From: a virus
Virus genome (UHGV): UHGV-0306748
DNA: 11,466 nt
Strand: one strand, 5' to 3'
A program made the position numbers and the translations under genes. Each line of letters begins with the position of its first letter. Within the stretch, counting starts at the first letter, position 1. Shown here piece after piece: positions 1 to 11,466 of this stretch. The notes under the pieces were generated by a model, which saw nothing but the letters and a program-made list of their open reading frames with translations, searched no databases and was not told the origin of the DNA.

Positions 1-631
1 TAGCTCGAAAGAGATTAGCCGCCAGTTCTGTTGAACCCATATGATCCAGGATCTTCTGATTCTTTTTCAGCCCCTTCCGCTGATGAATAGCTTTCTGATC
101 TAATCCACCATACAGCCCCCGGTAACCATGATTCTGAAATATGGCGAAATCGATAGCTGTCGCTCCCCCAGCTTGCTGCGCTGCCTCAACCAATTGTTTG
201 TTATGTTCTTTCAATTCATTTCTCAGAAAAAGACGCTTTTCGTCTTCACGAAGTTGCCTGAAAGCTTCATCGTCAGCCAGCTCCTGCCGTCGGGTCTGGA
301 TAGCAAAATAAGTTTGCCCTGCCGCAATAACCGGTTTCGCAGGGTCGCCGTTTTGTACTACCAGGTAACAGGCATAGCGGGAGAGATGAACATCTTCAAG
401 TTCTCGTTGAGCCCCTGAACCTAATACAACCATTTTGGTGGTTTCAACGAAATGGTCAGATGCAGCTTGATTGCTGGCTTCGCACGCTTGAGTCGCGCGG
501 GCCAGTACCTTTTGAAAATTGCGCCAGTCCCGATAATCCAGTAACGGTGCCAATTCTCTAGCTGACCAAAATTCTTGCCCTTCAGTGCCATAATGCCGTA
601 TTTCTTCAAAAGGTTGATGATGTTCGTTCAT
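1..631 (-). CDS. dinD: DNA-damage-inducible protein D (DinD) homolog, copy 1; 3' end lies outside the window (partial)
   Basis: Manual minus-strand translation from ATG at 631 gives MNEHHQPFEEIRHYGTEGQEFWSARELAPLLDYRDWRNFQKVLARATQAC...ILDHMGSTELAANLFRA with no stop before position 1. It is absent from the ORF track only because its stop is outside the window. An in-frame ATG at 643 would add MEWA. About 80% identical to the 975..1799 ORF. The N-terminus matches my recollection of E. coli DinD. Confidence 0.7.
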   Translation of the reverse strand, partial: MNEHHQPFEEIRHYGTEGQEFWSARELAPLLDYRDWRNFQKVLARATQACEASNQAASDHFVETTKMVVLGSGAQRELEDVHLSRYACYLVVQNGDPAKPVIAAGQTYFAIQTRRQELADDEAFRQLREDEKRLFLRNELKEHNKQLVEAAQQAGGATAIDFAIFQNHGYRGLYGGLDQKAIHQRKGLKKNQKILDHMGSTELAANLFRA

Positions 632-676
632 TGCCCACTCCATGTGATATCGATTGCAAAGAAAGTAAATCTGTAA

Positions 677-692
677 CTGTATTTATATACAG
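677..692. promoter_or_regulatory. LexA (SOS) box, CTGT-N8-ACAG
   Basis: CTGTATTTATATACAG is a perfect match to the E. coli LexA operator consensus, about 40-50 bp upstream of the copy-1 dinD start. dinD is a known LexA-regulated gene. Confidence 0.65.
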
Positions 693-782
693 TTGTGAGT
701 ATCTCACGTTCTCAGTGTGCTGGGCAAAAAAACATCGCAAAATCTGGAGCAGGCACGAAAAACAGAATTGAAAGTTGCGGGG

Positions 783-816
783 AAGAAAAATGCCGCTCTG
801 TTTGAGTGGGCGGCAT
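783..816 (-). terminator. Candidate rho-independent terminator downstream of dinD copy 2
   Basis: 7-bp inverted repeat ATGCCGC / GCGGCAT (790-796 / 810-816) with a 13-nt loop. On the minus strand it is followed by TTTTCTTCC (complement of 781-789). About 160 nt past the 975 stop. Confidence 0.35.
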
Positions 817-974
817 TTGTGAAGGCTGAAAAGTAAGAATTAGTGTTACGAGTTATGAATCTGTTTATTGAGTAGGTTGATTAAAGCTGCGTGGTTGCTG
901 GTTTTTTTGTAATGCATTTTTTCATTAGGTACACCCTTGTGTACACCGTAAAGTGATGTGCTTAAAGGCTGCGT

Positions 975-1799
975 CTATTTTTTATCCAGCTTCTTGGCGG
1001 CAGATTCTAATTGTTTGATGCTTTTTTCCGGTACGGGCAGATTCTCTGGCATTGTCCCGCCTAGCTCCTGGATTGTTTGCCTAACTTTCCGGCCGACCTC
1101 GAAGTGAGTTTCATTAGCTTTTTGCTTCGATTTAACATTATCTCTGCGGAGCTTTTCTTCTGCCTGAGTCGCTCGGAACAGGTTGGCTGCCAATTCGGTA
1201 GAACCCATGTGATCGAGTATCTTTTGGCTCTTTTTAAGACCTTTTCGCTGATGGATAGCCTTTTGGTCTAACCCGCCATAAAGCCCCTTGTATCCGTGAT
1301 TCTGGAAGATTGCAAAGTCCAATGTTGTTTCAACACCAGCTTGCTGTGCTGCCTCAACAAGTTGCTTGTTGTGTTCCTTTAACTCGTTTCGGAGAAAAAG
1401 GCGCTTTTGATCCTCGCGGAGTCGCTTGAATGTTTCATCGTCAGCTAGTTCCTGCCGTCTGGTCTGTATTGCAAAATATGTTTGCCCAGCAGCAATAACT
1501 GGCTTGCTAGGATCGCCGTTCTGCACAACTAGATAGCAGGCATATCTGGACAAATGAACATCTTCCAACTCTCGTTGGGCACCAGACCCTAGAACAACCA
1601 TTTTGGTGGTATCAACGAAATGGTCTGAAACCTCTTGGTTGCTGGTTTCACACGCCTGAGCTGCTCGTGATAGAACGTTTTGAAAGTTTCGCCAATCTCG
1701 ATAATCCAGTAGTGGTGCCAAATCTCTTGCTGACCAATATTCCTGCCCTTCGCTTCCATATTGTCGTAAGTCTTCAAATGGTTGATGGTGCTCGTTCAT
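975..1799 (-). CDS. DinD-family protein, diverged paralog (copy 2), 274 aa
   Basis: Complete ORF in the track; MNEHHQPFEDLRQYGSEGQEYWSARDLAPLLDYRDWRNFQ... is collinear with copy 1 over its full length. No LexA box in its upstream region (1800-1933). Confidence 0.8.
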   Translation of the reverse strand: MNEHHQPFEDLRQYGSEGQEYWSARDLAPLLDYRDWRNFQNVLSRAAQACETSNQEVSDHFVDTTKMVVLGSGAQRELEDVHLSRYACYLVVQNGDPSKPVIAAGQTYFAIQTRRQELADDETFKRLREDQKRLFLRNELKEHNKQLVEAAQQAGVETTLDFAIFQNHGYKGLYGGLDQKAIHQRKGLKKSQKILDHMGSTELAANLFRATQAEEKLRRDNVKSKQKANETHFEVGRKVRQTIQELGGTMPENLPVPEKSIKQLESAAKKLDKK

Positions 1800-1933
1800 T
1801 GCTCACTCCATGTATTGGCTTGATGTTCAAGTGTGGTGACTTTTACTGGCGCTACTGCTAGCGGAGAGACTCAATATCTCACATCCTGATTAATGTATGA
1901 TAGAGGTATCCCACAATAAGGAACCTGCCAGCC

Positions 1934-2293
1934 ATGAGAATGACCAGCCGCAAAAAAGAGATACTCAGCTACTTTGAACCTGATAGCCTCGATTGGGTTA
2001 CTGGTGAGATTGGTGCGCCGCCGTTCGATGTGTCGGGTGTGGCCTACCTGCTTCATGGCATGGTGTCGTTCGATAAGCGTCACCAGCTCGAATCAACCCG
2101 GCGCACACTGGAAAGCATGGTTGCTGGTGGGCTGCTTGAGCGGGTGACAGTGTATGAATCGCGCCAGATACGGCGCGGCGGTGAGACTAACGCAACGGTC
2201 GTGCGCTACGGTTTACCCGGTCAGTGCGCTGTTATGCGCGATACTGGCGGCGCTGATAACGCAATATCAGGTGAATACATGCGGGTCAGTTAA
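1934..2293 (+). CDS. Hypothetical protein, 119 aa, possibly winged-helix-like
   Basis: Only sizeable plus-strand ORF that does not lie inside another gene. AAGGAA sits 10 nt upstream of the ATG. The segment LESMVAGGLLERVTVYE resembles a wHTH recognition helix and wing. Its 3' end overlaps the convergent 2286..2828 gene by 8 nt. No family recognised. Confidence 0.45.
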   Translation: MRMTSRKKEILSYFEPDSLDWVTGEIGAPPFDVSGVAYLLHGMVSFDKRHQLESTRRTLESMVAGGLLERVTVYESRQIRRGGETNATVVRYGLPGQCAVMRDTGGADNAISGEYMRVS

Positions 2294-2828
2294 TAGCCTG
2301 CAATCTGTCGTTGATGCGGCTCAGGTCGTAAACCCGGCGTTCAATATCCAGCATCAGGAAATTGTGGATCTCGGCCTGCTCAGGATTATCAGACTCTCTG
2401 GCCTGTAATAGCAATTCATTGTAACCATGCAAGCCGCCTGAGTTTTCCGCCGGGGTGGTGCCTTTCCCACGCAGGCAGCTAATAGGCTGATTGCTCGTAT
2501 CGTGTGTTTGCTTCTCCAGCACAATGACGCAATCCCACCAGTTGCCAAAGTCATACGTGTAAACCAGCTTGTCACCATCATTCTGGAGCGCTGCCCATAG
2601 TGGTGTGATTGCCGCATTACCCATGCTTTCATCCTCACCCCATACGCGATACTCGCTACCGGGATCACCTTTACGCCCTTTCTCGAACATATACAGGTGT
2701 TCGTCATTCCAGCCAAAAGCCAACTGGATCACCGCGTGAAGTTCACTAAAGGGGATTTGCTCTGGAACCAGCACACGCCGCCATATAGGTGGTTTGCTGT
2801 CTCGGATGGTTATCTTTAGCTGGTACAT
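2286..2828 (-). CDS. pRiA4b ORF-3-like family protein, 180 aa
   Basis: N-terminus MYQLKITIRDSKPPIWRRVLVP...LHAVIQLAFGWNDEHLYMF matches the signature I recall for this family (YQLK-[IV]-x-L...PP-[IV]-WRR...GW..HL..F). ATG start at 2828. Confidence 0.7.
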   Translation of the reverse strand: MYQLKITIRDSKPPIWRRVLVPEQIPFSELHAVIQLAFGWNDEHLYMFEKGRKGDPGSEYRVWGEDESMGNAAITPLWAALQNDGDKLVYTYDFGNWWDCVIVLEKQTHDTSNQPISCLRGKGTTPAENSGGLHGYNELLLQARESDNPEQAEIHNFLMLDIERRVYDLSRINDRLQAIN

Positions 2829-2948
2829 GCAAATCCTGAATAAATGCGAATCGGAAGGATAACGATACTGACGTACTCACAATTCTGTAAAGGTGAATAA
2901 AGGAAATTTGCTTAATACGCATAAGTTACATGCGGAATAATCCCGTAT

Positions 2949-3134
2949 CTACCTGCGCGGCGCTGGCTTCTTCCACTGGTAGGCAGGTGCTCGCATCATT
3001 TCGCGGAACCTGTCGCGCCGGGCTATATCGGCATTAACTGAGCGTTCTATCTCCCGTTGATCTGCCTGTGTAAGCTGGTGGCCTCCGTGCTCAAGTTTGG
3101 CGATGGTCAATAAGGCTATTTCGCGTGGTGTCAT
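2949..3134 (-). CDS. Hypothetical small protein, 61 aa
   Basis: ORF with ATG start and a GAGGG-like SD 8 nt upstream. Basic C-terminus. No family recognised. Confidence 0.4.
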   Translation of the reverse strand: MTPREIALLTIAKLEHGGHQLTQADQREIERSVNADIARRDRFREMMRAPAYQWKKPAPRR

Positions 3135-3267
3135 ACGTCATACCCTCTGGAAGGATGAAACACGCCCGGATTAAATTTCATTTTTCGCGGGTATAAAAAA
3201 ACGATGGGGCGGGCAGTCCCGGACAGTCAGGGCTGTAGAGATTTGACTACCCCCTCCCGCTGGTGGT

Positions 3268-3549
3268 CTACCTTTGCCTCTTGCCGCCATTTAACCGGAA
3301 GGCGTTACCGTTCGGTTGCGCTATCCCCATGCGGTGTTGCGTTTCGGTAACAGCTTTATGCAGGTCGCCAAAGCCCTCAACCTTTACAGGCGGGCGCTTC
3401 ACGTTCTCCAGACACGTTTCACGGCGGCGCTTTATCCATTCCCGATCATCGTCCTCGGTGCATAACAGCATGACTTCCATCCATCGCGCTGCGGCGCGTC
3501 GGTACAGCCCTTTTGCTTCCAGATCCTCGGCTTTACTGTCGTTTACCAT
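3268..3549 (-). CDS. PerC-family transcriptional activator-like protein, 93 aa
   Basis: The segment AEDLEAKGLYRRAAARWMEVMLLCTEDDDREWIKRRRETCL matches the PerC-family pattern as I recall it. Strong SD (GGGGGAG, 6-nt spacer) before the ATG at 3549. Confidence 0.65.
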   Translation of the reverse strand: MVNDSKAEDLEAKGLYRRAAARWMEVMLLCTEDDDREWIKRRRETCLENVKRPPVKVEGFGDLHKAVTETQHRMGIAQPNGNAFRLNGGKRQR

Positions 3550-3762
3550 GTTTATCTCCCCCAGAATGGCGTTTCATCGTCGAATGGTGGGCGTTGGTCA
3601 AAATCATCAGGGGTATTATATAACTCCCATCCCGGCGCGGATTGTGTTGCGTGGCCTCCTGTGTGCCTGTAGCCTGGCTGATTCCGGTAATACTGCGGAG
3701 TTAGGTCTACCGGCATAGCTTACCCGTGGAGAAATGAATCATCGAATGAGTTTGGTCGGGAG

Positions 3763-4434
3763 TTATTCCACCAGCAAAAATGGCGTTGCCCGGTCTATGA
3801 CGTTGATGCCAATTAACGAGCTAACATTTCGACCATTCACAATGCTATCCCGTTCAAGCAAATGCGCTATTTTTTCTACTTCATACCAGTATTGAGCCAT
3901 GAGGGCTTTGGTCTTTTCAACGAGTTTAGAAAGTATTAACTCCCTGTTAATTCGCTTATCTGTAGCGCAGATTAAATCGAGCATGTCATTTACGTTAGCC
4001 ATGTCATAGCGATGAGGTAGCGAATACTTTTTGTTGAAAATATCGTTGTTTTCGTAAAGGGCTTCGCTTACTGGTCCGGCGAGGGATACAAAAGCAGCCT
4101 TTTTTGCATCGCGCTTTATACCATCCGCATAGTAACGTATGAAAGGGATAACTTTACCATTCTGCCCAACTACACCAGATTTACTATCCCGCAAACGCCC
4201 GAGATCGTGGCTGTGAATTATGCTGTGTTTAACAACGCCCAAACACTTGGCCTCATGTACATGTTCGCCAGCAACGTAACCGTATTCATCCATAACGGCG
4301 ATAACCTGTATATCTAAGCGAATAAGCCATGCAGCTACTGCATGTCCCGCTTCGTGGAATGCTACACATCGTTTACCATCACCTATCCAGTTATAGAACA
4401 TTTCATGCTCATATATCTGGTGAATGGCGCCCAT
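3763..4434 (-). CDS. Standalone FtsH-like (peptidase M41) zinc-metallopeptidase domain protein, 223 aa; no AAA+ or transmembrane region
   Basis: HEAGH zinc-binding motif at nt 4342..4356 (confirmed on the DNA) in the FtsH-like context AFHEAGHAVAAWL. A downstream MANVNDM segment resembles the FtsH GASNDI region that holds the third zinc ligand. C-terminal helices resemble the FtsH M41 C-terminus. Its ATG overlaps the upstream gene's stop (TAATG). Confidence 0.7.
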   Translation of the reverse strand: MGAIHQIYEHEMFYNWIGDGKRCVAFHEAGHAVAAWLIRLDIQVIAVMDEYGYVAGEHVHEAKCLGVVKHSIIHSHDLGRLRDSKSGVVGQNGKVIPFIRYYADGIKRDAKKAAFVSLAGPVSEALYENNDIFNKKYSLPHRYDMANVNDMLDLICATDKRINRELILSKLVEKTKALMAQYWYEVEKIAHLLERDSIVNGRNVSSLIGINVIDRATPFLLVE

Positions 4435-4607
4435 TACGCGCCCTCGCTTGCCAGTGAGGCCAGCGCCTTATCCATTAATCCCCGAGCAATTTCGTGGATC
4501 GTTGGCGCAACTCCTACCTCTGATTTTTTACGCTGCTCCTCCTGAATTTTCTTTATCGCTTCCATTTGCTTCTCACTTATCAATACCGGCTTTACTGAAA
4601 TAGCCAT
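4434..4607 (-). CDS. Small ribbon-helix-helix-like DNA-binding protein, 57 aa from ATG at 4607
   Basis: MAISVKPVLISEKQMEAIKKIQEEQRKKSEVGVAPTIHEIARGLMDKALASLASEGA has a strand-helix-turn-helix layout typical of RHH (CopG/Arc-like) proteins. AAGGGG SD 4-5 nt before the ATG. The track's TTG start at 4634 is probably an over-extension. Translationally coupled to the peptidase gene. Confidence 0.5.
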   Translation of the reverse strand: MAISVKPVLISEKQMEAIKKIQEEQRKKSEVGVAPTIHEIARGLMDKALASLASEGA

Positions 4608-4639
4608 AACGCCCCTTAGAACTGTATAAAACAACAGTT

Positions 4640-4700
4640 ATTATAGTTTCACAAATAGCAATATTTATCACCGTAATTGCAAAATATGAAACAAATAGCA
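4640..4700 (-). promoter_or_regulatory. Candidate promoter/operator region for the RHH-peptidase pair
   Basis: Minus-strand TATAAT at 4645..4640, about 33 nt upstream of the ATG. Two 10-bp direct repeats ACAAATAGCA (4651-4660 and 4691-4700) lie 40 bp apart. No convincing -35 hexamer at 17-bp spacing. Confidence 0.3.
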
Positions 4701-4734: not shown

Positions 4735-4809
4735 CGTTCTGTGTGTCAAGTTTTGACAAGTTTCGTTTTAAGCTCACCCCCCCATAGAATCTTTTTGGGG
4801 GTGTAATAT

Positions 4810-5057
4810 CCCTACCAATCCCTACTAACTGGCTCATGCCACGAATGGCAAGGCTTTCAGACTGGTAGGCATTCAATTTTGTTGCCCTACATAACCCTAC
4901 TTATCCCTACTAAATCACTTCAACGGCATTTTACTGCCTGTTTTATTTGGTAGGGATATGTAGGGATAAGTAGGGATAAAAATATATATCCCTACCTAGT
5001 TTAAAGCCTTGCTACGTCTGGCCTCGTCTCGTTTTTAGTAGGGCAGTAGGGATAAGT
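4810..5057. repeat. Iteron cluster; putative replication origin for the alpha-like primase-helicase
   Basis: About 11 copies of a GTAGGG(ATA) / (TAT)CCCTAC core in both orientations. Three CCCTAC copies begin at 4885, 4895 and 4905 and three TAGGGATA copies at 4951, 4961 and 4971 (10-bp phasing). Others are at 4812, 4822, 4992, 5040 and 5049. An AT-rich stretch AAAAATATATAT sits at 4978-4989. Confidence 0.6.
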
Positions 5058-5072: not shown

Positions 5073-7514
5073 TCAATCATCACTCTGCCCGCTCTCCACA
5101 CCGTAAGCGCGTGGCATGAACTCCTCAGCCTTCTCGTTATAGCCAACGTTGGTTTGCGCTCTGCCGTTAATGCTTCTCGTCAGGTAGCTGGCTCGGTACT
5201 CTTTTGCTGCTGATTTTATGGCGCGTGAAAACTTATTGACGGAAAGCGGTTTACCCAAACCGTGATACTCCATAAACGCCAGATAAAGATGATAAAGATA
5301 CGTCCTCGGCTCTGGCTGGCCTGCCCATGTACCTCCGCCCATCATCATGCCTTTGGGTTCGTTCATGAAAAAAAGCGCCGCACACATATCGACAACCGGA
5401 TCCGTGCCGCGTTTAACCTCTAGCGCCTCCTGCGAATCGCGCTGCTCTAGTAATAGTGCCTTTGCTTTGTTCTGGTCGGCAAAGGTGGTTAGCAGGTGGC
5501 GGATAATCACCGGGATTTCTCGCCTGATTTTTGCGGTTAAATCCGGGTCTTTGTCTGCGTCTGATACCGGGTTATTAAACGGGAATATCACGCGGCGGCG
5601 GGCAATGCCCCCGTTTCGCTCCGTGAATGTCATCGGCTCGTTATTGGTTGCCATAACAACGGCATTTATCACGGTTGTGAACTGCTTTTCATATTTCCCA
5701 TCAATCTCTACCGGATCGCCGCCCGTAATGGCTTTAATCCCCGCACCCTCTCCAACATAGCGGGTCTGGTCAGGCATAATAATCAGGCTTTTTCCTACGA
5801 ACTGCGCCCGTCCCCGTGCGGTGTCCAGCGTCATCATGCTACCGCTGGCGGTGTTGTGTTCACCTGCCAGCGTGGTTGCTATGCTGCTGAATACGGATTT
5901 CCCACTGCCGCCCTCGCCAGTTATCTCAATGAATAGCTGCCAGTCGTGACGCTTCGCCAGCACCATAAACAAGGCTGCTTTGATACGCTCGGCCTTATGA
6001 TGGTCGCCAGCCGTTGCATGATTCAGCCAACGGGTAAAATTGGGGGCGCTGGTGGTAATATTTTCCCCCGGCGCTGGCGGGGTGTAGGTGATCCCATTGT
6101 GGTTCATCAGCCAGTTACCCGGCGAATGGGCGGAAAACGTCTGCGTAGCGAGGTCATAAACGCCGTTATCAAAACCAATCAAATCCCCGCTCCGCTCACC
6201 AATTACCGGTATTTGCAGCTTCATGGTTGCGACAACCGATTTAATCCCCTTTTCGGTGTAGTGGGCTTCGTGCTCGTCGAAAATTGCCACCATAACCCTT
6301 TCTAATTCGCTGTCTGGTAGCTTCACCCATACGCCAGATTCGTAGCAGTAAACAGTGCCACTATCAGGGTTAACCGCCAACATATCCCATCGAGATGAAA
6401 GCAACCGCGCTTTCTGGCTGGCTGCCATTTGTGCAATATCTCCGACATCGGCTTTACGGCGGGATTTACCGCCCTCAATGGCTTGCAATCGCGGTTTCAC
6501 GGCTTCCCCTTGAATCTGGTACATCGAATCGTTAAACGCAGCCGTAGCGACTTCCAGCCCGTTTTGCTGGCGGTAGTCGTCCCAGTCGGCTTTGTAGTCT
6601 GTCGGCGGCAGCGCCACCCAGCCAGCCACGGATAAGGCGGCTTTCTCTGCGGCATCTTTGCCCGTGTTCGCCTGGTCGTCCTGCTGGTGGTCGTTATCTG
6701 CGGCAATGATAATCTGCGTGGCTGGATATATCCGGCGCATCACTTCGGCAACGGGTAGCAGGTTGCCCGCGTCAATTGCTGCCACTGCCAGCGCGTCCGG
6801 GCGCATCAGGTGAACTGAAAGGGCCGTCGCCAGCCCCTCGGCAATTAAAACGCTCTGCGGCGATTCTGGCGCGTTTACGGCGTGATATGCCCCGCGCTTT
6901 GCTGAACCTGTCAGGAGTCGTTTATCTCCCTGCGGCGTGATGGTCTGCGCCGCCACTACTGCGCCGGATTCATCCACCAGCTCCAGCAATAACGAACCAT
7001 CCGGCATAACCGGATAGTTAAACCCGGTCAGCCCTTTTGATTGCAGGTAATCAGATTCGCCCTGTGTGGCACTCTGGCGCATTCCGGCATACAGATGGGC
7101 AAACGTAGCCCTTCGCTGCTCTGCGTCCTCTGCTGCCTGTTTCTGGCGCTCCTGCTCACGCTGCTGGCGGTCAGCTTCCAGTTGCTCTCTTCTATGGCTC
7201 GCTGCCGCCGGGTCGGTTTGCGCTGCCCGGTAATCAATACCCAGCACGTCAGCGGCAAGCTGTGCCGCCTCCGTGGTGTCGCAGTTGTTAACCCGCTTGA
7301 TTAAATCCAGCCCGTCACCAGCGCCACACTGGTTGCAGATAAAGCTACCGCGCCCGTTGTCGTCGAATCTGAAACGGTCTTTTCCACCACATGCAGGGCA
7401 TGGAGAATGGCGGCGCGATGAATCAGGCACGTCGATAGACAATCCAGCCAGCACATAAGGCCAGCGCCCTGCTGCGGCGCTGGTCACTTCGCGGATAAGG
7501 TCGATATTACGCAT
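5073..7514 (-). CDS. P4 alpha-like primase-helicase, about 813 aa from ATG at 7514
   Basis: N-terminal zinc-binding motif CPACGGKDRFRFDD...CNQCGAGDG, a Toprim-like acidic segment IIIAADNDHQQDD, and a C-terminal Walker A GEGGSGKS (nt about 5895-5918). AGGAGG SD 5 nt before the ATG at 7514, which overlaps the upstream stop. The track's 7547 start is likely over-extended. Confidence 0.85.
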   Translation of the reverse strand: MRNIDLIREVTSAAAGRWPYVLAGLSIDVPDSSRRHSPCPACGGKDRFRFDDNGRGSFICNQCGAGDGLDLIKRVNNCDTTEAAQLAADVLGIDYRAAQTDPAAASHRREQLEADRQQREQERQKQAAEDAEQRRATFAHLYAGMRQSATQGESDYLQSKGLTGFNYPVMPDGSLLLELVDESGAVVAAQTITPQGDKRLLTGSAKRGAYHAVNAPESPQSVLIAEGLATALSVHLMRPDALAVAAIDAGNLLPVAEVMRRIYPATQIIIAADNDHQQDDQANTGKDAAEKAALSVAGWVALPPTDYKADWDDYRQQNGLEVATAAFNDSMYQIQGEAVKPRLQAIEGGKSRRKADVGDIAQMAASQKARLLSSRWDMLAVNPDSGTVYCYESGVWVKLPDSELERVMVAIFDEHEAHYTEKGIKSVVATMKLQIPVIGERSGDLIGFDNGVYDLATQTFSAHSPGNWLMNHNGITYTPPAPGENITTSAPNFTRWLNHATAGDHHKAERIKAALFMVLAKRHDWQLFIEITGEGGSGKSVFSSIATTLAGEHNTASGSMMTLDTARGRAQFVGKSLIIMPDQTRYVGEGAGIKAITGGDPVEIDGKYEKQFTTVINAVVMATNNEPMTFTERNGGIARRRVIFPFNNPVSDADKDPDLTAKIRREIPVIIRHLLTTFADQNKAKALLLEQRDSQEALEVKRGTDPVVDMCAALFFMNEPKGMMMGGGTWAGQPEPRTYLYHLYLAFMEYHGLGKPLSVNKFSRAIKSAAKEYRASYLTRSINGRAQTNVGYNEKAEEFMPRAYGVESGQSDD

Positions 7515-8744: not shown

Positions 8745-8920
8745 GCTGCCACCTCACGAATGCGGGTAATCTGGATGTGGGAAAGGCGTTCATTTCTGGC
8801 CTGATTTAGCGCCTCAGCTTTGGCGCTGATCGCGCTGCGGGCATCAACGATATAAACGAACTCGACTAATTCGCCGCTCCGGGCGGTGGCGCATCCTGCA
8901 ACACGGAAGTAATTAAGCAT
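8741..8920 (-). CDS. Hypothetical small protein, about 59 aa from ATG at 8920
   Basis: The track ORF begins at a TTG (8950). The first ATG is at 8920, overlapping the stop of the 8913.. gene by 8 nt. No family recognised. Confidence 0.4.
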   Translation of the reverse strand: MLNYFRVAGCATARSGELVEFVYIVDARSAISAKAEALNQARNERLSHIQITRIREVAA

Positions 8921-9104
8921 GTGCGCCCCCTGTGCGAATACGTCCGGCAAAAAAGCAAACGTGATCCCGCGCCAGAATGCGGCGGGCTTCCTGCTCAGTC
9001 TCTGCGGCGATATGGTGAATTTTGGCGGTAATTGTCGGCATATCGCGGCGAACTGCTGCGATAATCCAGATAAATTGCGGTTTTTGGGTAGGGGTAGTAG
9101 CCAT
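8913..9104 (-). CDS. Icd-like (host cell division inhibitor-like) small protein, 63 aa, nested in-frame at the 3' end of the upstream ORF
   Basis: ATG at 9104 preceded by AGGAGG with an 8-nt spacer. MATTPTQKPQFIWIIAAVRRD...RRILARDHVCFFAGRIRTGG resembles Icd-like proteins of P4-like elements as I recall them. Confidence 0.5.
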   Translation of the reverse strand: MATTPTQKPQFIWIIAAVRRDMPTITAKIHHIAAETEQEARRILARDHVCFFAGRIRTGGAHA

Positions 9105-9701
9105 TATGGCAGCCTCCTGTAACTGGGATTTATTCCCACCACCGGAAACGCCAATTTCACTGGTGGTGAGCTGAACAGGGTTGGCGTAACCGGCGTTACA
9201 GGAAACCGGCGCGGATCGCTCCGCCCCCATCCAGCCCACCATTACTTTTTGAGCAATATGGGCTATAGCCATATCGCTGGGAAAGAGGTGTGCAGATGCG
9301 AGGACACAAAAAAAGACGCTCGGCGCGTCATGTGTCGCCTGTAACATTATCAGGACGCCAATCCCGGCACCAGATTTTGCTGGTGCGCTATAACCATAAA
9401 CCGGGTTGGCGATAGTCGGCAAGCCCTTTTTTATGGACTCCGAATACTCACCTTCTCGCGTAACGACCCCTAATAAATCTTCCAGCGCACGCGTATTTGT
9501 CGCGAAAGTCGATGTGGAACGGTTCACAACGGTAGCAATCCAGTTCATACCACCAGCCAGCAGGGGGAATTTATTCCCCACAATCAGCTTTTTAGAGGTG
9601 ATTATTTCTTGGTTTAAAATGTCATCATTTGTCGTCATTCCCCGTGCGTGGATGTCAGGTTTTGTGAGGTTCAGGCTAAGTTTTGCTAAGTCATTAACCA
9701 T
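8913..9701 (-). CDS. Ash-family-like protein; start uncertain; reads in-frame through the Icd-like segment
   Basis: The track ORF starts at a GTG (9872) inside the DUF4222-like gene. The first ATGs after that gene's stop are at 9701 and 9638. The segment KSGAGIGV...PVSCNAGYANPVQLTTSEIGVSGGGNKSQ resembles the P4 Ash family as I recall it. No stop separates it from the Icd-like region. Confidence 0.4.
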   Translation of the reverse strand: MVNDLAKLSLNLTKPDIHARGMTTNDDILNQEIITSKKLIVGNKFPLLAGGMNWIATVVNRSTSTFATNTRALEDLLGVVTREGEYSESIKKGLPTIANPVYGYSAPAKSGAGIGVLIMLQATHDAPSVFFCVLASAHLFPSDMAIAHIAQKVMVGWMGAERSAPVSCNAGYANPVQLTTSEIGVSGGGNKSQLQEAAIMATTPTQKPQFIWIIAAVRRDMPTITAKIHHIAAETEQEARRILARDHVCFFAGRIRTGGAHA

Positions 9702-9810
9702 AACAATTGATAACAGGCAGCCGTTCGCGACCTTTGGTTTTATAAGGTTGTAAGGGTTAACATTTGTTAACAGGCTAGCCAGATTAAAGGCTTCTTTCTG
9801 GGCGGCAGGT

Positions 9811-9993
9811 TCATTCAGTATCACGGCGCACCTCCACGAACTCATTAACGAATCTCTCCAAAGGCTGAACACATGGCGACTGATAGCCCTCGCGGTAAAA
9901 GGTCACTCGGTTATGCTCGACGCGCTGTACGGTCACTACAGCCCCGTGCGAATCCTTGTAACGGCTTCCCGGCATCGGATTATGGTTACGCAT
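9811..9993 (-). CDS. DUF4222-like small protein, 60 aa
   Basis: ATG at 9993 with a GGAGG SD at 6 nt; overlaps the upstream stop by 8 nt. The pattern ...VTFYREGYQSPCVQPLERFVNEFVEV resembles small proteins common in P4-like elements. Confidence 0.5.
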   Translation of the reverse strand: MRNHNPMPGSRYKDSHGAVVTVQRVEHNRVTFYREGYQSPCVQPLERFVNEFVEVRRDTE

Positions 9994-10819
9994 GGTTTAC
10001 CTCCAGACGTTTAGTGAGCCAGCGTTGCGACAGGCGGGTGAGTTCTCCTTTGCGCTGCTCATATTCCATGCCCATATCAATTAGCGTGATATTGGTGCTT
10101 TCCAGATAGGAGAGGTGTTCAAGCTGTGCTGCGTTCATATGGTCGCGAGGTTCGCCAGTAATGCCATTTGCCTGCGCCCACTGCTTCGCCGTCATGCCAC
10201 CCAGCACGATACGGGCGATCATGTTGCTCTCGTTGCTGTAGTGGCGCTGCTGCGTCGTTTTACCCAGCTCGGCACGGGCCATATTCAGCGCATCGCACAT
10301 TGGCTTAAAGTTGTTTGCGGCACTGATACGGGCTTTTAGCTGGCGACGATAGCGGGCGGCGATTTCAGGCACGCTACGCTGTAATTCTTCCTCGCACTGG
10401 ATGAAATAACGGCGGATAGCGCGGCCCTGTTCGGTGCGTTCGACCATCGCCAGTTCTTTCGCCATTCCGACACTTAACAGATAGTCTTTGCCGGGTCTGC
10501 CAGACTGCTTAATCTTGCTGTAAGCCGCGCCATTCGGGCTTTTCCCCAGATTTGGGGAAATAGTTTTATGGACTGAGTAATCGTGCCCAATGGTGAAGTC
10601 ATATTCAGAGATGCGATCAGTGATCCATGTAGAGAAGTCTTTTCCCACGCCCAACGCTTTGTGTAACGCTTTTGCGCTAACAATATTGGTTTCACGCCCA
10701 CCGATATGACCAGGAATAACCGGGACAATTGCGGCAAATTCATTACCGTTAATTGTGCCCTGATAGGCGTTCAGATGAGGGGCGGCCTCAGAAATTAATC
10801 TGCTTTTTTCGATGTTCAT
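9986..10819 (-). CDS. Phage antirepressor-like protein (AntA/KilAC-type), 277 aa
   Basis: The N-terminal region (AIVPVIPGHIGGRETNIVSAKALHKALGVGKDFSTWITDRI) and a central region (GMAKELAMVERTEQGRAIRRYFIQCEEEL) resemble Ant/KilAC antirepressor domains. GGAG SD 7 nt before the ATG at 10819. Confidence 0.55.
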   Translation of the reverse strand: MNIEKSRLISEAAPHLNAYQGTINGNEFAAIVPVIPGHIGGRETNIVSAKALHKALGVGKDFSTWITDRISEYDFTIGHDYSVHKTISPNLGKSPNGAAYSKIKQSGRPGKDYLLSVGMAKELAMVERTEQGRAIRRYFIQCEEELQRSVPEIAARYRRQLKARISAANNFKPMCDALNMARAELGKTTQQRHYSNESNMIARIVLGGMTAKQWAQANGITGEPRDHMNAAQLEHLSYLESTNITLIDMGMEYEQRKGELTRLSQRWLTKRLEVNHA

Positions 10820-10831
10820 TTTCAGTCTCCG

Positions 10832-11263
10832 TTAGGCGGCGGTGAGATTGTCCGGGTATAGATTGAGAATGTCGGCAATTTCAGGCTGAGAAAGTCCCTG
10901 ATAGCCGCCAGCGTCGGCGTTATGGTTCACAAGCCGAATAACTTTTAGAACGTCACCGCGCCCGGTAAAGCGATAGCGTAAATGTGACCCTATCCCGTCG
11001 GGGTTCTTTTCGTCTATACGCTCAAGCTGAATATCAAGCCTGCGCTCTAACTCGCTGGCGTAGTTCCTTCCAGACGAAAGGCGGCAATAACGCAGAATAT
11101 CGTTTTCTGTCCATCCCTCTATACCAGTACGCAGCATATAGACGCGGGCGCGGTGTTTCTTTGGGGTACGCCTAGGTACTTGTACCGGGCTGGTGGTCGG
11201 CGTAATATCAGACGTGCGAATATCTGAGTTAGCCGCCTGTAATGGGCGGTTTTTCTTTTTCAT
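10832..11263 (-). CDS. Hypothetical basic protein, about 143 aa from ATG at 11263
   Basis: The track ORF starts at a TTG (11266). The adjacent ATG at 11263 overlaps the AlpA stop (TGATG). No family recognised. Confidence 0.5.
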   Translation of the reverse strand: MKKKNRPLQAANSDIRTSDITPTTSPVQVPRRTPKKHRARVYMLRTGIEGWTENDILRYCRLSSGRNYASELERRLDIQLERIDEKNPDGIGSHLRYRFTGRGDVLKVIRLVNHNADAGGYQGLSQPEIADILNLYPDNLTAA

Positions 11264-11466
11264 CAAGCCACCTTTCCCCGACGTTCTGCCAGCCAGTTGT
11301 TAATCTCTACCGCATCAAAGGCGGTAATCTTCTCGCCCAGCTTTACCGGACGTGGTAGTGAACCGTTTCTTACTTTACGGTCGATGGTGGATACACTAAC
11401 GCCCAGCAATTCAGCCAGGCGAAAGCGGCGGATGTAACCTGTGTTGGGGATGTTGTCTGTAGCCAT
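11263..11466 (-). CDS. alpA: AlpA-family (Vis/excisionase-like) HTH regulator, 67 aa; start coincides with the window edge and may be truncated
   Basis: RFRLAELLGVSVSTIDRKVRNGSLPRPVKLGEKITAFDAVEINNWL fits the AlpA phage-regulator HTH pattern. It is the first gene of the minus-strand operon. Confidence 0.65.
   Translation of the reverse strand: MATDNIPNTGYIRRFRLAELLGVSVSTIDRKVRNGSLPRPVKLGEKITAFDAVEINNWLAERRGKVA

Follow-up and report, generated by a model that had tools for sequence, protein, structure and literature searches.

Why should one stretch of DNA carry two dinD genes in tandem, and where does a second dinD come from that has none of the LexA control placed on the first? The question is raised by UHGV virus genome UHGV-0306748, a sequence of 11,466 nucleotides (hereafter the window), in which an original prediction had described two co-oriented minus-strand dinD genes, one with a perfect LexA box and the other without a recognisable site. 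That description is correct. The explanation that best accounts for it, and which is likely to be right, is that a PICI-type island of about 13.3 kb has integrated into the end of yicC, beside the LexA-controlled native dinD, and has brought with it a xenologous dinD cassette of its own. The island-borne gene is here called dinD2 and the native gene copy 1 (Table 1).

The yicC site and the limits of the island

In L001, a genome that is 99.5% identical to the window and from which the full-length native copy was taken, native dinD adjoins yicG, as comparison of the genomes also finds in K-12. Copy 1 had been judged closest to chromosomal dinD, and it is indeed the native gene, although its product is only 84% identical to K-12 DinD; this reflects the existence of two native allele classes in E. 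coli, which are 53% different in the Bro-N domain and occur in a ratio of roughly 52:39. The class found in the window, as defined by the 5' 252 nt, is present in 2814 of 5426 E. coli genomes. The LexA box, CTGTATTTATATACAG, lies 46 nt 5' of the copy 1 ATG and is identical in K-12. With a weight matrix trained on LexA operator sequences, whose training boxes score 2.3-11.2, it has a heterology-like score of 2.2, the best in the window, and copy 1 has within its promoter region the operator of functional quality that defines the SOS (LexA) regulon. The predicted promoter, TTGCCC-18-GATACT, has the best sigma-70 score of the native upstream region (9.0, the 95th percentile of background), and its -10 candidate overlaps a TATCTCAC element at 700-707.

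Further upstream the native arrangement is interrupted. The empty site of K-12 consists of yicC, 220 bp and then dinD, without an insert, and the hairpin found directly after yicC in K-12 has the same sequence as that in the window, where it has been parted from yicC by the island and now lies downstream of dinD2 (a strict terminator scan of 600-2400 did not list it). In L001 the interval between yicC and native dinD contains int, which adjoins yicC and lies outside the window, followed in order by the P4-family primase, PerC, pRiA4b-ORF3, the 119-aa ORF and dinD2, with the window representing the right-hand 10.6 kb of the island. Integration took place at the last codons of yicC, for which the island supplies replacements. 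The junction sequences are gttacgagTTAttcgatgttCTGAATCTGctcgcg in K-12, gttacgagTTAtGAATCTGtttattgag in the window and TTActcgatattCTGAATCTGctcgcg at the other junction in L001, and both island junctions have a CTGAATCTG core in common. The exact core shared by the junctions is only 7-9 bp, and the right junction is shorter than the expected B-O-P' arrangement by 10 bp in the window and by 11 bp in L001, such that it is not a clean textbook att site. Since a repeat search of L001 found only this short core and no long att direct repeats flanking the island, the boundaries were set from the empty K-12 site and from L003, a sister island that occupies the same site but lacks dinD2 and has the right arm (864-950) in common with the window. 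GTACACC repeats occur at both island ends, including beside int in L001 (27965-28020), and are probably arm-type sites of the integrase. In about 23% of E. coli genomes the yicC site is split, and genomes in which it is occupied number roughly 1230.

Table 1. Positions of the features identified in the window.
Feature	Position	Strand	Remarks
Native chromosomal dinD (copy 1)	1..631	minus	First 210 codons, no stop; leaves window toward yicG
LexA operator of native dinD	675..694, core 677-692	minus	20-mer AACTGTATATAAATACAGTT in gene orientation, exact CTG-N10-CAG
Candidate native dinD promoter	698..727	minus	-10 GATACT 698-703, -35 TTGCCC 722-727
yicC intrinsic terminator hairpin	786..820	minus	GCCGCCCACTCAAACAGAGCGGC then T run, read by eye
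Right junction (attR)	855..863		Homology to empty K-12 site stops; GAATCTG core common to yicC 3' end
Island right arm	864..950		Two GTACACC repeats, 929-935 and 941-947
dinD2 cassette	951..1889	minus	939 bp: 24 nt 3' flank, CDS, 90 nt 5' flank
dinD2 (copy 2)	975..1799	minus	Complete, 274 aa, DinD family; Bro-N 11-105 and helical C-terminal domain
Divergent intergenic region, dinD2 / 119-aa ORF	1800..1933		-10-like GATATT, complement 1873-1878
119-aa ORF	1934..2293	plus	Satellite backbone; in 385 E. coli genomes
Satellite accessory operon	2286..4607	minus	Transcribed towards dinD2
pRiA4b ORF-3 family	2286-2828	minus	Pfam PRiA4_ORF3 2e-41
61-aa ORF	2949-3134	minus	Accessory operon
PerC-family ORF	3268-3549	minus	Pfam PerC 9e-29
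223-aa ORF	3763-4434	minus	Accessory operon
57-aa ORF	4434-4607	minus	Accessory operon
Second LexA box and perfect TATAAT	4620..4645	minus	Box AACTGTTGTTTTATACAGTT 4620-4639, TATAAT 4640-4645; ahead of accessory operon
Probable replication origin	4800..5050		GTAGGGAT-type iteron clusters downstream of primase gene
P4-family primase-helicase, 824 aa	5073..7547	minus	Pfam Zn_Ribbon_Prim, Toprim_3, D5_N, DUF5906, Pox_D5
Immunity-type module	8913..10819	minus	Antirepressor, Icd/Ash-like protein, C4 and isrK RNAs
Icd/Ash-like protein	8913-9872	minus	Pfam Phage_ASH 3e-24
C4 antisense RNA	9159-9246	minus	Rfam RF01695, 76.9 bits, above gathering
isrK RNA	9309-9386	minus	Rfam RF01394, 75 bits, above gathering
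AntA/AntB antirepressor	9986-10819	minus	Pfam AntA 2e-21
AlpA-type HTH gene	11263-11466		Also in L001

What sort of element is this? Its gene content and its resemblance to EcCIMP1-type elements assign it to the PICI type. It has a tyrosine integrase at one end, site-specific integration and flanking repeats (short, the right one with a deletion), together with an AlpA-type regulator, a primase and a putative origin, whose iterons were read directly in the sequence and also appear as direct repeat family D9. Its length of about 13.3 kb falls within the 10-20 kb or so of such islands, and it has no virion or lysis genes; structural genes were neither annotated in L001 nor detected by profile scans. 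With EcCIMP1 and the Gram-negative PICIs (PMC11773190) it shares the integrase, AlpA-type HTH, antirepressor, primase and PerC-family gene, as well as a size in their 13-20 kb class, the absence of structural and lysis genes and the position of accessory genes at the int-distal end. The block of 119-aa ORF, pRiA4b-ORF3 and PerC is also found at the tRNA-Thr proA-yagU site beside vat and MarR, as in EcCIMP1. The island in the window differs from EcCIMP1 in its yicC 3' end site, its integrase, the terminal dinD and the LexA-box promoter before the accessory operon; EcCIMP1, with a related backbone, is mobilised by phage Kapi1 (PMC11773190). The P4-like satellites with defence hotspots (PMC9122126) likewise have a P4-family primase, a C4-type antisense RNA, icd/ant-like genes and variable cargo at a fixed position in the element. 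Of the P4-like core (psu, delta and sid with the alpha primase, alpA and int), however, only the primase, HTH and int were found, with no Psu, Sid or Delta in the L001 annotation or in Pfam scans of the larger ORFs, and the cargo is accommodated at the att-distal end, beside the arm sites.

The origin of the second dinD

The original prediction placed copy 2 next to a mobile element. In fact dinD2 is inside the island, with the integrase arm repeats (928-947) on one side of it and the satellite backbone on the other, and the further suggestion that it may travel with the element is supported by its position within the island boundaries and its absence from sister islands. The occurrence of L003 at the same site without dinD2 fixes the exact limits of the cassette, with 600-950 of the window corresponding to L003 5573-5927 and 1890-2389 to L003 6001-6500, such that the cassette stands in place of 73 bp of the sister island. 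As this cassette is borne by the island and missing from sister islands, the tandem pair is the outcome of integration and not of duplication. Within E. coli, 34 genomes have dinD2, and about 350 have the backbone from 1890 onwards without it. The 119-aa ORF, which has no match in Pfam, NCBIfam, PHROGs or PADLOC, was considered as a dedicated regulator of dinD2 and rejected because it is part of the backbone in these dinD2-less islands.

Sequence comparison leads to the same reading. Over the 210 residues of copy 1 visible in the window the two proteins are 89% identical, and over their full length the figure is 84.7%, in place of the approximately 80% initially estimated. At the protein level dinD2 is closest to a Pectobacterium gene (97%) and to one carried by a Salmonella satellite (96%), in comparison to 85% for native E. 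coli. By these identities dinD2 is a xenolog, a foreign allele rather than a diverged local duplicate, with 127 synonymous against 42 non-synonymous codon differences between the copies; it is under purifying selection. The longest identical run between the two copies is 17 nt, which makes recombination between them unlikely. The Salmonella relative (L010) is itself carried at the end of a different int-alpA-Ash-DUF927 island, one that occupies the yicC/yicG site. The Pectobacterium gene sits in a decayed island, in which an int fragment, IS1, a truncated 119-aa ORF and dinD are accompanied by arm repeats and an att repeat, with the first codons of the 119-aa ORF persisting upstream of dinD.

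Could the pair nevertheless have arisen by local tandem duplication, with one copy then diverging, losing its LexA box and becoming a constitutive paralog merely beside a mobile element? The two genes are adjacent, co-oriented and colinear, both encode 274 aa, and the homology between them reaches 14 nt 5' of the ATG, with a GTGAGATA element in both. Yet their full-length nucleotide identity is only 74.9% and synonymous change is near-saturated; dinD2 is far closer to the Pectobacterium and Salmonella genes than to its neighbour, and island L003, identical in other respects, does not have it. The tandem pair, which the original prediction had allowed might be the ordinary chromosomal arrangement, is confined to 33 of the 5426 complete E. 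coli genomes (0.6%), and most members of the DinD family never had a LexA box to lose. A local duplication can therefore be given almost no credence. Capture by aberrant excision, in which a satellite at yicC of another enterobacterial host took up the neighbouring dinD in the manner of specialised transduction, has somewhat more in its favour, in that the att site adjoins dinD in Escherichia, Shigella, Rahnella, Morganella, Pectobacterium and 'Enterobacteriaceae bacterium G50' and that no gene of the island lies further out than dinD2. A gene so acquired sits poorly, however, with the position of dinD2 inside the arm-type repeats and the crossover core instead of beyond them. Upstream of dinD2, too, the features of the chromosomal yicC-dinD interval (yicC terminator, att core) are missing, and the sequence runs straight into satellite backbone, which is also found 5' of the Pectobacterium dinD, and the spacing from dinD stop to GTACACC arm repeats, exactly 28 nt, is the same in the Salmonella island with its different replication module. 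Capture is accordingly improbable, and delivery of a xenologous cassette by the island is the preferred reading.

LexA control within the dinD family

If dinD2 is foreign, then has it lost a LexA box at all? Among 52 gammaproteobacterial loci scanned, only three have a LexA box 5' of dinD, and these are confined to E. coli, Shigella and Citrobacter portucalensis. SOS control is thus the exception within the dinD family, and as the lack of a LexA box is the norm it is the native E. coli gene that has the unusual, probably acquired, operator. LexA control of native E. coli dinD would on this distribution be a derived, lineage-specific state. The description of copy 2 as a paralog freed from SOS control is unsupported on both counts, since it is a xenolog and 49 of the 52 loci are without a LexA box anyway.

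The upstream region of dinD2 (1800-1933) is homologous to the dinD upstream regions in Salmonella and Pectobacterium. The element that was said to be shared with copy 1, TATCTCAC, is present at 1875-1882 as well as at 700-707, its complement GTGAGATA / GTGGGATA is kept 5' of the Salmonella dinD and at five Pectobacterium loci, and on this sequence conservation its presence in both upstream regions is more than chance. As had been noted, CTG-N10-CAG is absent from 1800-1933, and the LexA matrix gives a best score there of 19.9 (background median 22.3 per 156 nt; native box 2.2), so that no operator of the SOS regulon type was found in this region. A sigma-70 weight-matrix scan for dinD2 gave a best score of 6.5 against a background median of 5.6, with no convincing promoter, and a consensus promoter and terminator scan of 600-2400 returned zero promoters; the latter is uninformative because it missed the native promoter too. 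dinD2 would be transcribed from the usual promoter of the family, one without a LexA box and with a -10-like GATATT homologous to GATACT of the native gene, and its expression may be constitutive at a low level, or under the control of the element, instead of directly SOS-repressed.

A rather unlikely alternative is that dinD2 is SOS-inducible by an indirect route, either by read-through from the promoter at 4620-4645 or by SOS-triggered induction or replication of the satellite raising its expression. There a strong LexA site (score 6.1, within the training range) abuts the perfect -10 on the downstream side, in a module that is widespread (499 E. coli genomes); the genes from 4607 to 2286 are all on the same strand as dinD2, and the minus strand from 2286 to 1800 has no predicted terminator-like site. 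Set against this, the accessory operon is separated from dinD2 by the convergent overlapping plus-strand gene at 1934-2293, dinD2 has a conserved upstream block of its own, and the Pectobacterium dinD persists without the accessory operon. Low constitutive or element-controlled expression from the gene's own upstream region is the reading retained here.

The DinD protein and its distribution

To our knowledge DinD has a single reported biochemical activity and no known physiological role. The product of dinD2 matches the NCBIfam equivalog NF008573 at 493.5 bits against a cut-off of 242, with residues 1-274 aligning to positions 6-279 of the 288 in the profile, and its Bro-N domain is recognised by Pfam with an E-value of 1e-11. 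K-12 DinD (PcsA), the SOS-regulon protein, is of the same family, length and Bro-N plus helical C-terminal architecture, from which dinD2 differs in being satellite-borne and without a LexA operator. The two proteins are 75% identical overall, with 45% identity in residues 11-84 and 86% in the C-terminal 190 residues, and identities of 77-97% are seen in the C-terminal domain when the native E. coli alleles and genera ranging from Morganella to Pseudomonas are compared.

The AF2 model of the dinD2 protein has a pLDDT of 88; a 15-sequence alignment left the C-terminal domain below 50, and an alignment of 53 sequences resolved it. The predicted fold matches that of Deinococcus DdrC, with two domains, a Dachshund-like wHTH and a helical bundle, at a sequence identity of 14-18%. 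DdrC (PDB 7qvb, 7udi, 8u0g) is a damage-induced D. radiodurans dimer binding nicks and double-strand breaks. At the sequence level the relationship is marginal: a PDB sequence search with DinD profiles gave no significant match (with the DinD HMM in HMMER, DdrC ranked second at E = 1), and hhalign gave a probability of 19.6% and a pairwise E of 0.0012, its alignment agreeing in register with the structural match; a search for full-length DdrC homologues recovered only 10 fragments. Nothing useful was returned when the C-terminal domain by itself was scanned against Pfam at E up to 10. DinD is probably a two-domain, dimeric protein with a DdrC-like fold that binds DNA lesions or RecA filaments. 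For K-12 DinD the reported activity is inhibition of postsynaptic RecA filaments (Uranga et al. 2011, as cited in PMC10602874).

While DdrC is described as Deinococcus-specific, DinD is found across phyla on mobile elements, with homologues that retain at least 70% identity. In about 35 of 80 species loci the homologue is embedded in a type I R-M operon, between hsdM and hsdS or just before hsdM, as are PrrC and a dinD/RhuM-domain CDS (PMC9881135); for dinD2 this is not the setting, as hsd genes are absent from both the window and L001. The family also extends to Streptococcus satellite prophages and PRCIs (Javan; PMC10602874), where a DinD-family gene of 54% identity is carried on an integrase/primase satellite. 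A phage collection holds 15 matching Streptococcus satellite records, and in the ten listed the match falls under a gene annotated dinD; in Javan743, the one record opened, dinD adjoins int, whereas in the window island it is at the far end. A dinD-like gene is known from a pneumococcal PRCI, and deleting it did not greatly affect transformation in one reported test (PMC10602874). Finally, the PADLOC model PDLC04919 of PDC-S13, a candidate and not a validated system, matches dinD2 at 3e-126 over residues 2-274; in the literature searched there was no report joining DinD with an anti-phage function and none mentioning PDC-S13. From these comparisons DinD is a widely transferred accessory gene, which occurs in type I R-M operons and on satellites and is a PADLOC defence candidate. 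Mobile elements and type I R-M operons may carry DinD for a role in conflict between host, phage and satellite, with anti-phage defence (PDC-S13) and modulation of recombination or SOS during helper-phage induction as candidate roles. The original prediction had suggested that copy 2 could be a constitutive recombination modulator or a decoy. The proposed functions draw on association, on one biochemical report for the K-12 protein and on a predicted structure.

Might the native gene of E. coli have had the same origin? It is possible, and is put forward tentatively, that E. coli dinD is itself domesticated cargo of yicC-targeting satellites, encoding a DdrC-like sensor or binder of DNA lesions or RecA filaments with a swappable Bro-N recognition domain. 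The protein would have a role in conflict among hosts, phages, satellites and type I restriction systems, where it might act against phages or serve in restriction alleviation or self-protection. PICI-type islands that target yicC would repeatedly deliver dinD and then decay, and the lone E. coli gene would later have gained its LexA operator. Three stages of such decay would be represented by the half-decayed island with dinD in Pectobacterium, by the Morganella locus, where a lone dinD lies between 78-bp att repeats, and by the lone dinD of E. coli, with no more than a faint trace of att. GTACACC repeats are absent downstream of the native E. coli gene. A local alignment of this region to the yicC 3' end, TGTTGATTGAG..GATGCG, was equalled by 11 of 1000 shuffles and is too weak for a relic att to be claimed.

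For annotation, the appearance of 'dinD (x2)' in PGAP output should be read as a warning of an occupied yicC integration site. Natural strains that have a LexA-controlled copy together with a copy predicted to be LexA-independent can be used for comparison, and the DdrC-like predicted fold, taken with the distribution of the family, leads to concrete experiments on DinD. The locus shows dinD in what is apparently its more typical setting, as the cargo of a phage satellite, and places the DinD family among the most widely transferred accessory genes, on satellites of both Gram-positive and Gram-negative bacteria.

Insertion of a satellite island at yicC

The window consists of E. coli chromosome, within which a PICI-type satellite of a familiar sort has an accessory cargo gene that happens to be a second allele of the adjoining host gene, dinD. 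Both dinD genes, the native copy 1 and the satellite copy 2 (dinD2), are confirmed as reading frames. At the empty site of K-12 the order is yicC, a 220-bp spacer, dinD and yicG; in NZ_CP024275, a genome 99.5% identical to the window, a block of about 13.3 kb is inserted between yicC and the native dinD promoter. This block encodes, in order, a tyrosine integrase, an HTH protein, an AntA/B antirepressor, an Icd/Ash-like protein, a P4-family primase, a PerC-family protein, a pRiA4b-ORF3 protein, a 119-aa ORF and the second dinD. The crossover core, (CT)GAATCTG, falls in the final codons of yicC, with replacement codons and a stop for that gene provided by the element at the opposite junction (TTActcgatatt). 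The GTACACC repeats at both island ends are probably integrase arm sites and, since they lie 28 nt from the dinD2 stop codon (975), the gene is internal to the attachment arm. The sister island of strain QDFD216, at the identical site, lacks dinD2, and the alignment of its locus record, L003, with the window (600-950 with 5573-5927, and 1890-2389 with 6001-6500) delimits a 939-bp cassette, made up of dinD2 plus 24 nt on its 3' side and 90 nt on its 5' side, that stands in place of 73 bp of the sister island. The terminator hairpin of yicC has been left between dinD2 and the promoter of native dinD, where transcripts exiting the island would end.

Features of the window and their coordinates
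Feature	Position	Strand	Remarks
Copy 1, native dinD	1-631	minus	210 codons; stop absent, continues beyond window edge
Native dinD operator as scored	675-694		LexA matrix score 2.2
Native LexA box	677-692		perfect palindrome CTGTATTTATATACAG
Shared TATCTCAC element	700-707; 1875-1882		found ahead of both copies
yicC terminator hairpin	786-820	minus	
End of similarity to empty site	855-863		
GTACACC repeats	929-935; 941-947		other island end: 27965-28020 of L001, the locus record from NZ_CP024275
dinD2 cassette	951-1889		
Copy 2, dinD2	975-1799	minus	complete, 274 aa
119-aa ORF	1934-2293	plus	divergent from dinD2
Satellite LexA box	4620-4639	minus	AACTGTTGTTTTATACAGTT; score 6.1; abuts perfect TATAAT (within 4620-4645)
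Iteron clusters	about 4800-5050	both	dense, GTAGGGAT-type
C4 antisense RNA	9159-9246	minus	Rfam, 76.9 bits
isrK Hfq-binding RNA	9309-9386	minus	Rfam, 75 bits

The gene content fits a Gram-negative phage-inducible chromosomal island: the element has int, an antirepressor, an AlpA-type HTH, a PerC-family gene and a primase beside which iterons lie, and virion or lysis genes are absent. The iteron region, immediately downstream of the primase gene, is probably the satellite replication origin. The C4 and isrK RNAs lie inside the icd/ant region (Icd/Ash-like protein and antirepressor), which gives the PICI-like island an immunity module of P1/P7/P4 type. [quoted passage not shown] The right-hand block (119-aa ORF, pRiA4b-ORF3, 61-aa ORF and PerC) recurs beside vat and MarR at tRNA-Thr proA-yagU, the site at which EcCIMP1, an experimentally mobilised PICI, has been described. 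The 119-aa ORF shares 8 nt with the end of the pRiA4b-ORF3 gene; although conserved in 385 E. coli genomes, it matched nothing in Pfam, NCBIfam, PHROGs or PADLOC.

How common is this arrangement? Of 5426 complete E. coli genomes, 385 have the backbone block that starts at 1890, at several chromosomal sites, while 34 have dinD2 and 33 the complete tandem. When the K-12 junction (2420-2680 of the K-12 locus record, L002) was searched against E. coli genomes, yicC and dinD were contiguous in 4192, and in about 1230 of 5424 (23%) the yicC stop was the point of interruption, so the yicC 3' end is a busy site and major integration hotspot. The dinD2-bearing island is a minor occupant, dinD2 being present on only about 3% of yicC-site occupants.

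Origin and divergence of the two genes

Over the stretch of copy 1 that the window covers, the proteins have 89% identity; at full length, with the native copy taken from NZ_CP024275, identity is 84.7% for amino acids and 74.9% for nucleotides. The codon differences, 127 synonymous against 42 non-synonymous, indicate an old divergence under purifying selection and are at odds with a recent duplication. RecA-dependent exchange usually needs roughly 25 nt of identity, and as the longest identical run common to both copies is 17 nt we infer that the pair is stable against mutual recombination.

In a search of 5.8 billion proteins the nearest named relatives of dinD2 were the dinD genes of Pectobacterium (97%) and Salmonella enterica (96%), against 85% for the common native alleles of E. 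coli. In Salmonella, dinD closes another island, which encodes int, AlpA, Bro-N, Ash, a DUF927 primase and DUF4224 and sits between yicC and yicG; the same arm repeats lie exactly 28 nt past the dinD stop, and then comes a pseudo-yicC end. In Pectobacterium (L006-L009, 5323-9050) yicC is followed by an integrase Arm-binding fragment, an IS1 and dinD, the latter preceded by the first codons of the 119-aa ORF with the intergenic block of window 1890-1945, and flanked on its 3' side by arm repeats and a 25-bp repeat of yicC-downstream sequence; the locus is an island end of this kind in decayed form. Next to it are defence genes, AbiEii and McrBC-like. That dinD2 was a host gene picked up through aberrant excision is unlikely, because the arm repeats and core lie outside it, and upstream it is flanked by satellite backbone and not by the yicC-dinD spacer of the chromosome.

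The native locus has a history of its own. The K-12 and window native alleles are 97% identical over residues 85-274 and 47% identical over residues 11-84, the Bro-N core; in 75-nt bins identity runs 0.71, 0.55, 0.56, 0.85, 0.92, 0.97 ... 1.0, with a sharp breakpoint near nt 225-300 (window 380-631 against L002 2761-3012). The window type of 5' end occurs in 2814 of the 5426 genomes and the K-12 type in 2118. The K-12 N-domain clusters with Morganella, Photorhabdus, Yersinia similis and Enterobacter (64-69%), and that of the window's native gene with dinD2, the Salmonella island and Pectobacterium (82-84%). Such a divergent N-domain on a conserved core shows that recombination has overwritten the dinD locus at least once, and resembles the swappable recognition domains often seen in conflict genes. 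The present dinD2 is excluded as donor of this recombined 5' part, since in the first 375 nt it has 75-84% nucleotide identity with the native gene. In Morganella psychrotolerans (L045, 5760-6950) a lone dinD lies between 78-bp direct repeats of the yicC 3' end and terminator, the footprint of an element that had integrated site-specifically and has since shrunk to its cargo. The corresponding att trace in E. coli K-12 is weak, 11 of 1000 shuffles reaching its score.

LexA sites at the native and satellite genes

The window contains five CTG-N10-CAG matches against 2.6 expected by chance. The perfect box ahead of copy 1 is identical in K-12 and directly follows GATACT, the candidate -10 of the best sigma-70 promoter (TTGCCC-18-GATACT), which is the classic operator position. 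Homology between the copies ends 14 nt upstream of the ATG (1813) and picks up again only at the GTGAGATA element, within which the native -10 falls; at the equivalent place dinD2 has GATATT, a poor -35 and no operator, and none of its promoter scores exceeds 6.5, about the level of the background (median 5.6). No CTG-N10-CAG occurs in 1800-1933, upstream of dinD2. On a weight matrix built from 24 E. coli operators, with dinD excluded (training sites 2.3-11.2), the best 20-mer of 1790-1945 scored 19.9, not above background (median 22.3 per 156 nt). Homology with the Salmonella gene covers the 95 nt upstream of dinD2; with the Pectobacterium gene it is partial there.

Does this make dinD2 a paralog that has lost SOS control, as originally predicted? 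When 250 nt upstream of dinD were scanned at 52 gammaproteobacterial loci, LexA sites were found only in E. coli and Shigella (2.2) and in Citrobacter portucalensis (5.7), and none in Pectobacterium, Serratia, Rahnella, Klebsiella, Kluyvera, Enterobacter, Yersinia, Photorhabdus, Xenorhabdus, Morganella or Pseudomonas; absence of the box is thus the family default, and the native E. coli operator probably a derived feature. The prediction stands in that copy 2 is mobile with the element and lacks a LexA box, but it had the evolutionary direction wrong and understated the role of the element. The Citrobacter gene, between ibpB and yidE, has a good box of its own (CACTGTAAAAACATCCAGTA, about 5930-5950 of L060), whereas the genes at that site in Klebsiella, Kluyvera and Scandinavium lack one, a difference that points to SOS control having been gained or lost independently there.

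The satellite itself has a strong LexA site. The module of TATAAT and LexA box, present in 499 E. coli genomes, ends 13 nt short of the start codon (ATG) of a 57-aa ORF, the first of an accessory operon continuing with a 223-aa ORF, PerC, a 61-aa ORF and pRiA4b-ORF3, and suggests that part of this PICI family is under direct SOS control. Indirect induction of dinD2 from this promoter is possible, since the operon runs towards dinD2 with no terminator predicted in between, although a convergent gene intervenes.

The DinD family and its possible activity

dinD2 scores 493.5 bits against the NCBIfam DinD equivalog model (cut-off 242) and has a Pfam Bro-N domain at residues 11-105. The family, which forms 9024 clusters at 50% identity, is unusually conserved and patchy in distribution: Chlamydiae, Planctomycetota, Chlorobi, Firmicutes, Spirochaetes and other groups have homologues that are at least 70% identical. 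Among 80 species-level loci, dinD lies within a type I R-M operon, co-oriented with hsdM, hsdS and hsdR and adjoining hsdM and hsdS, in about 35, after recF-gyrB in 10 (nine Pseudomonas and the gammaproteobacterium L18), after yicC in 7 and between ibpB and yidE in 7. In a phage collection, 15 Streptococcus satellite prophage records match with a DinD-family gene of 54% identity, the match falling under a gene annotated dinD in all ten matches listed; in Javan743 (1333-2184), the one record opened, this gene adjoins int. The literature also mentions a pneumococcal PRCI with a dinD-like gene (PMC10602874). Two Campylobacter jejuni phages, A11a and A18a, have a 75%-identical copy. PADLOC lists the family as defence candidate PDC-S13 (dinD2 match 3e-126), and its type I specificity-subunit model includes a DinD-like part.

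By a wide margin the best structural match of the AlphaFold model of dinD2 (53-sequence alignment, mean pLDDT 88) is Deinococcus DdrC, whose chains fill the top six Foldseek places (probability 1.00, about 240 columns). DdrC, a dimer induced by damage, compacts DNA and binds nicks as well as double-strand breaks; the authors who described it reported no homologues outside Deinococcus and do not mention DinD. At the sequence level the match is marginal, with agreeing register (HMMER E = 1, second in PDB; hhalign probability 19.6%). K-12 DinD is reported to inhibit RecA postsynaptic filaments (cited in PMC10602874). Taken with the predicted fold, this makes a dimeric binder of damaged or recombining DNA the most economical guess for DinD.

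More interesting than the tandem pair, and partly inferred, are the wider leads: dinD as a recurrent cargo of satellites and R-M systems, the LexA operator of E. coli dinD as a lineage-specific gain, the putative DdrC-like fold, the N-domain dimorphism, and the relics in Morganella and Pectobacterium.
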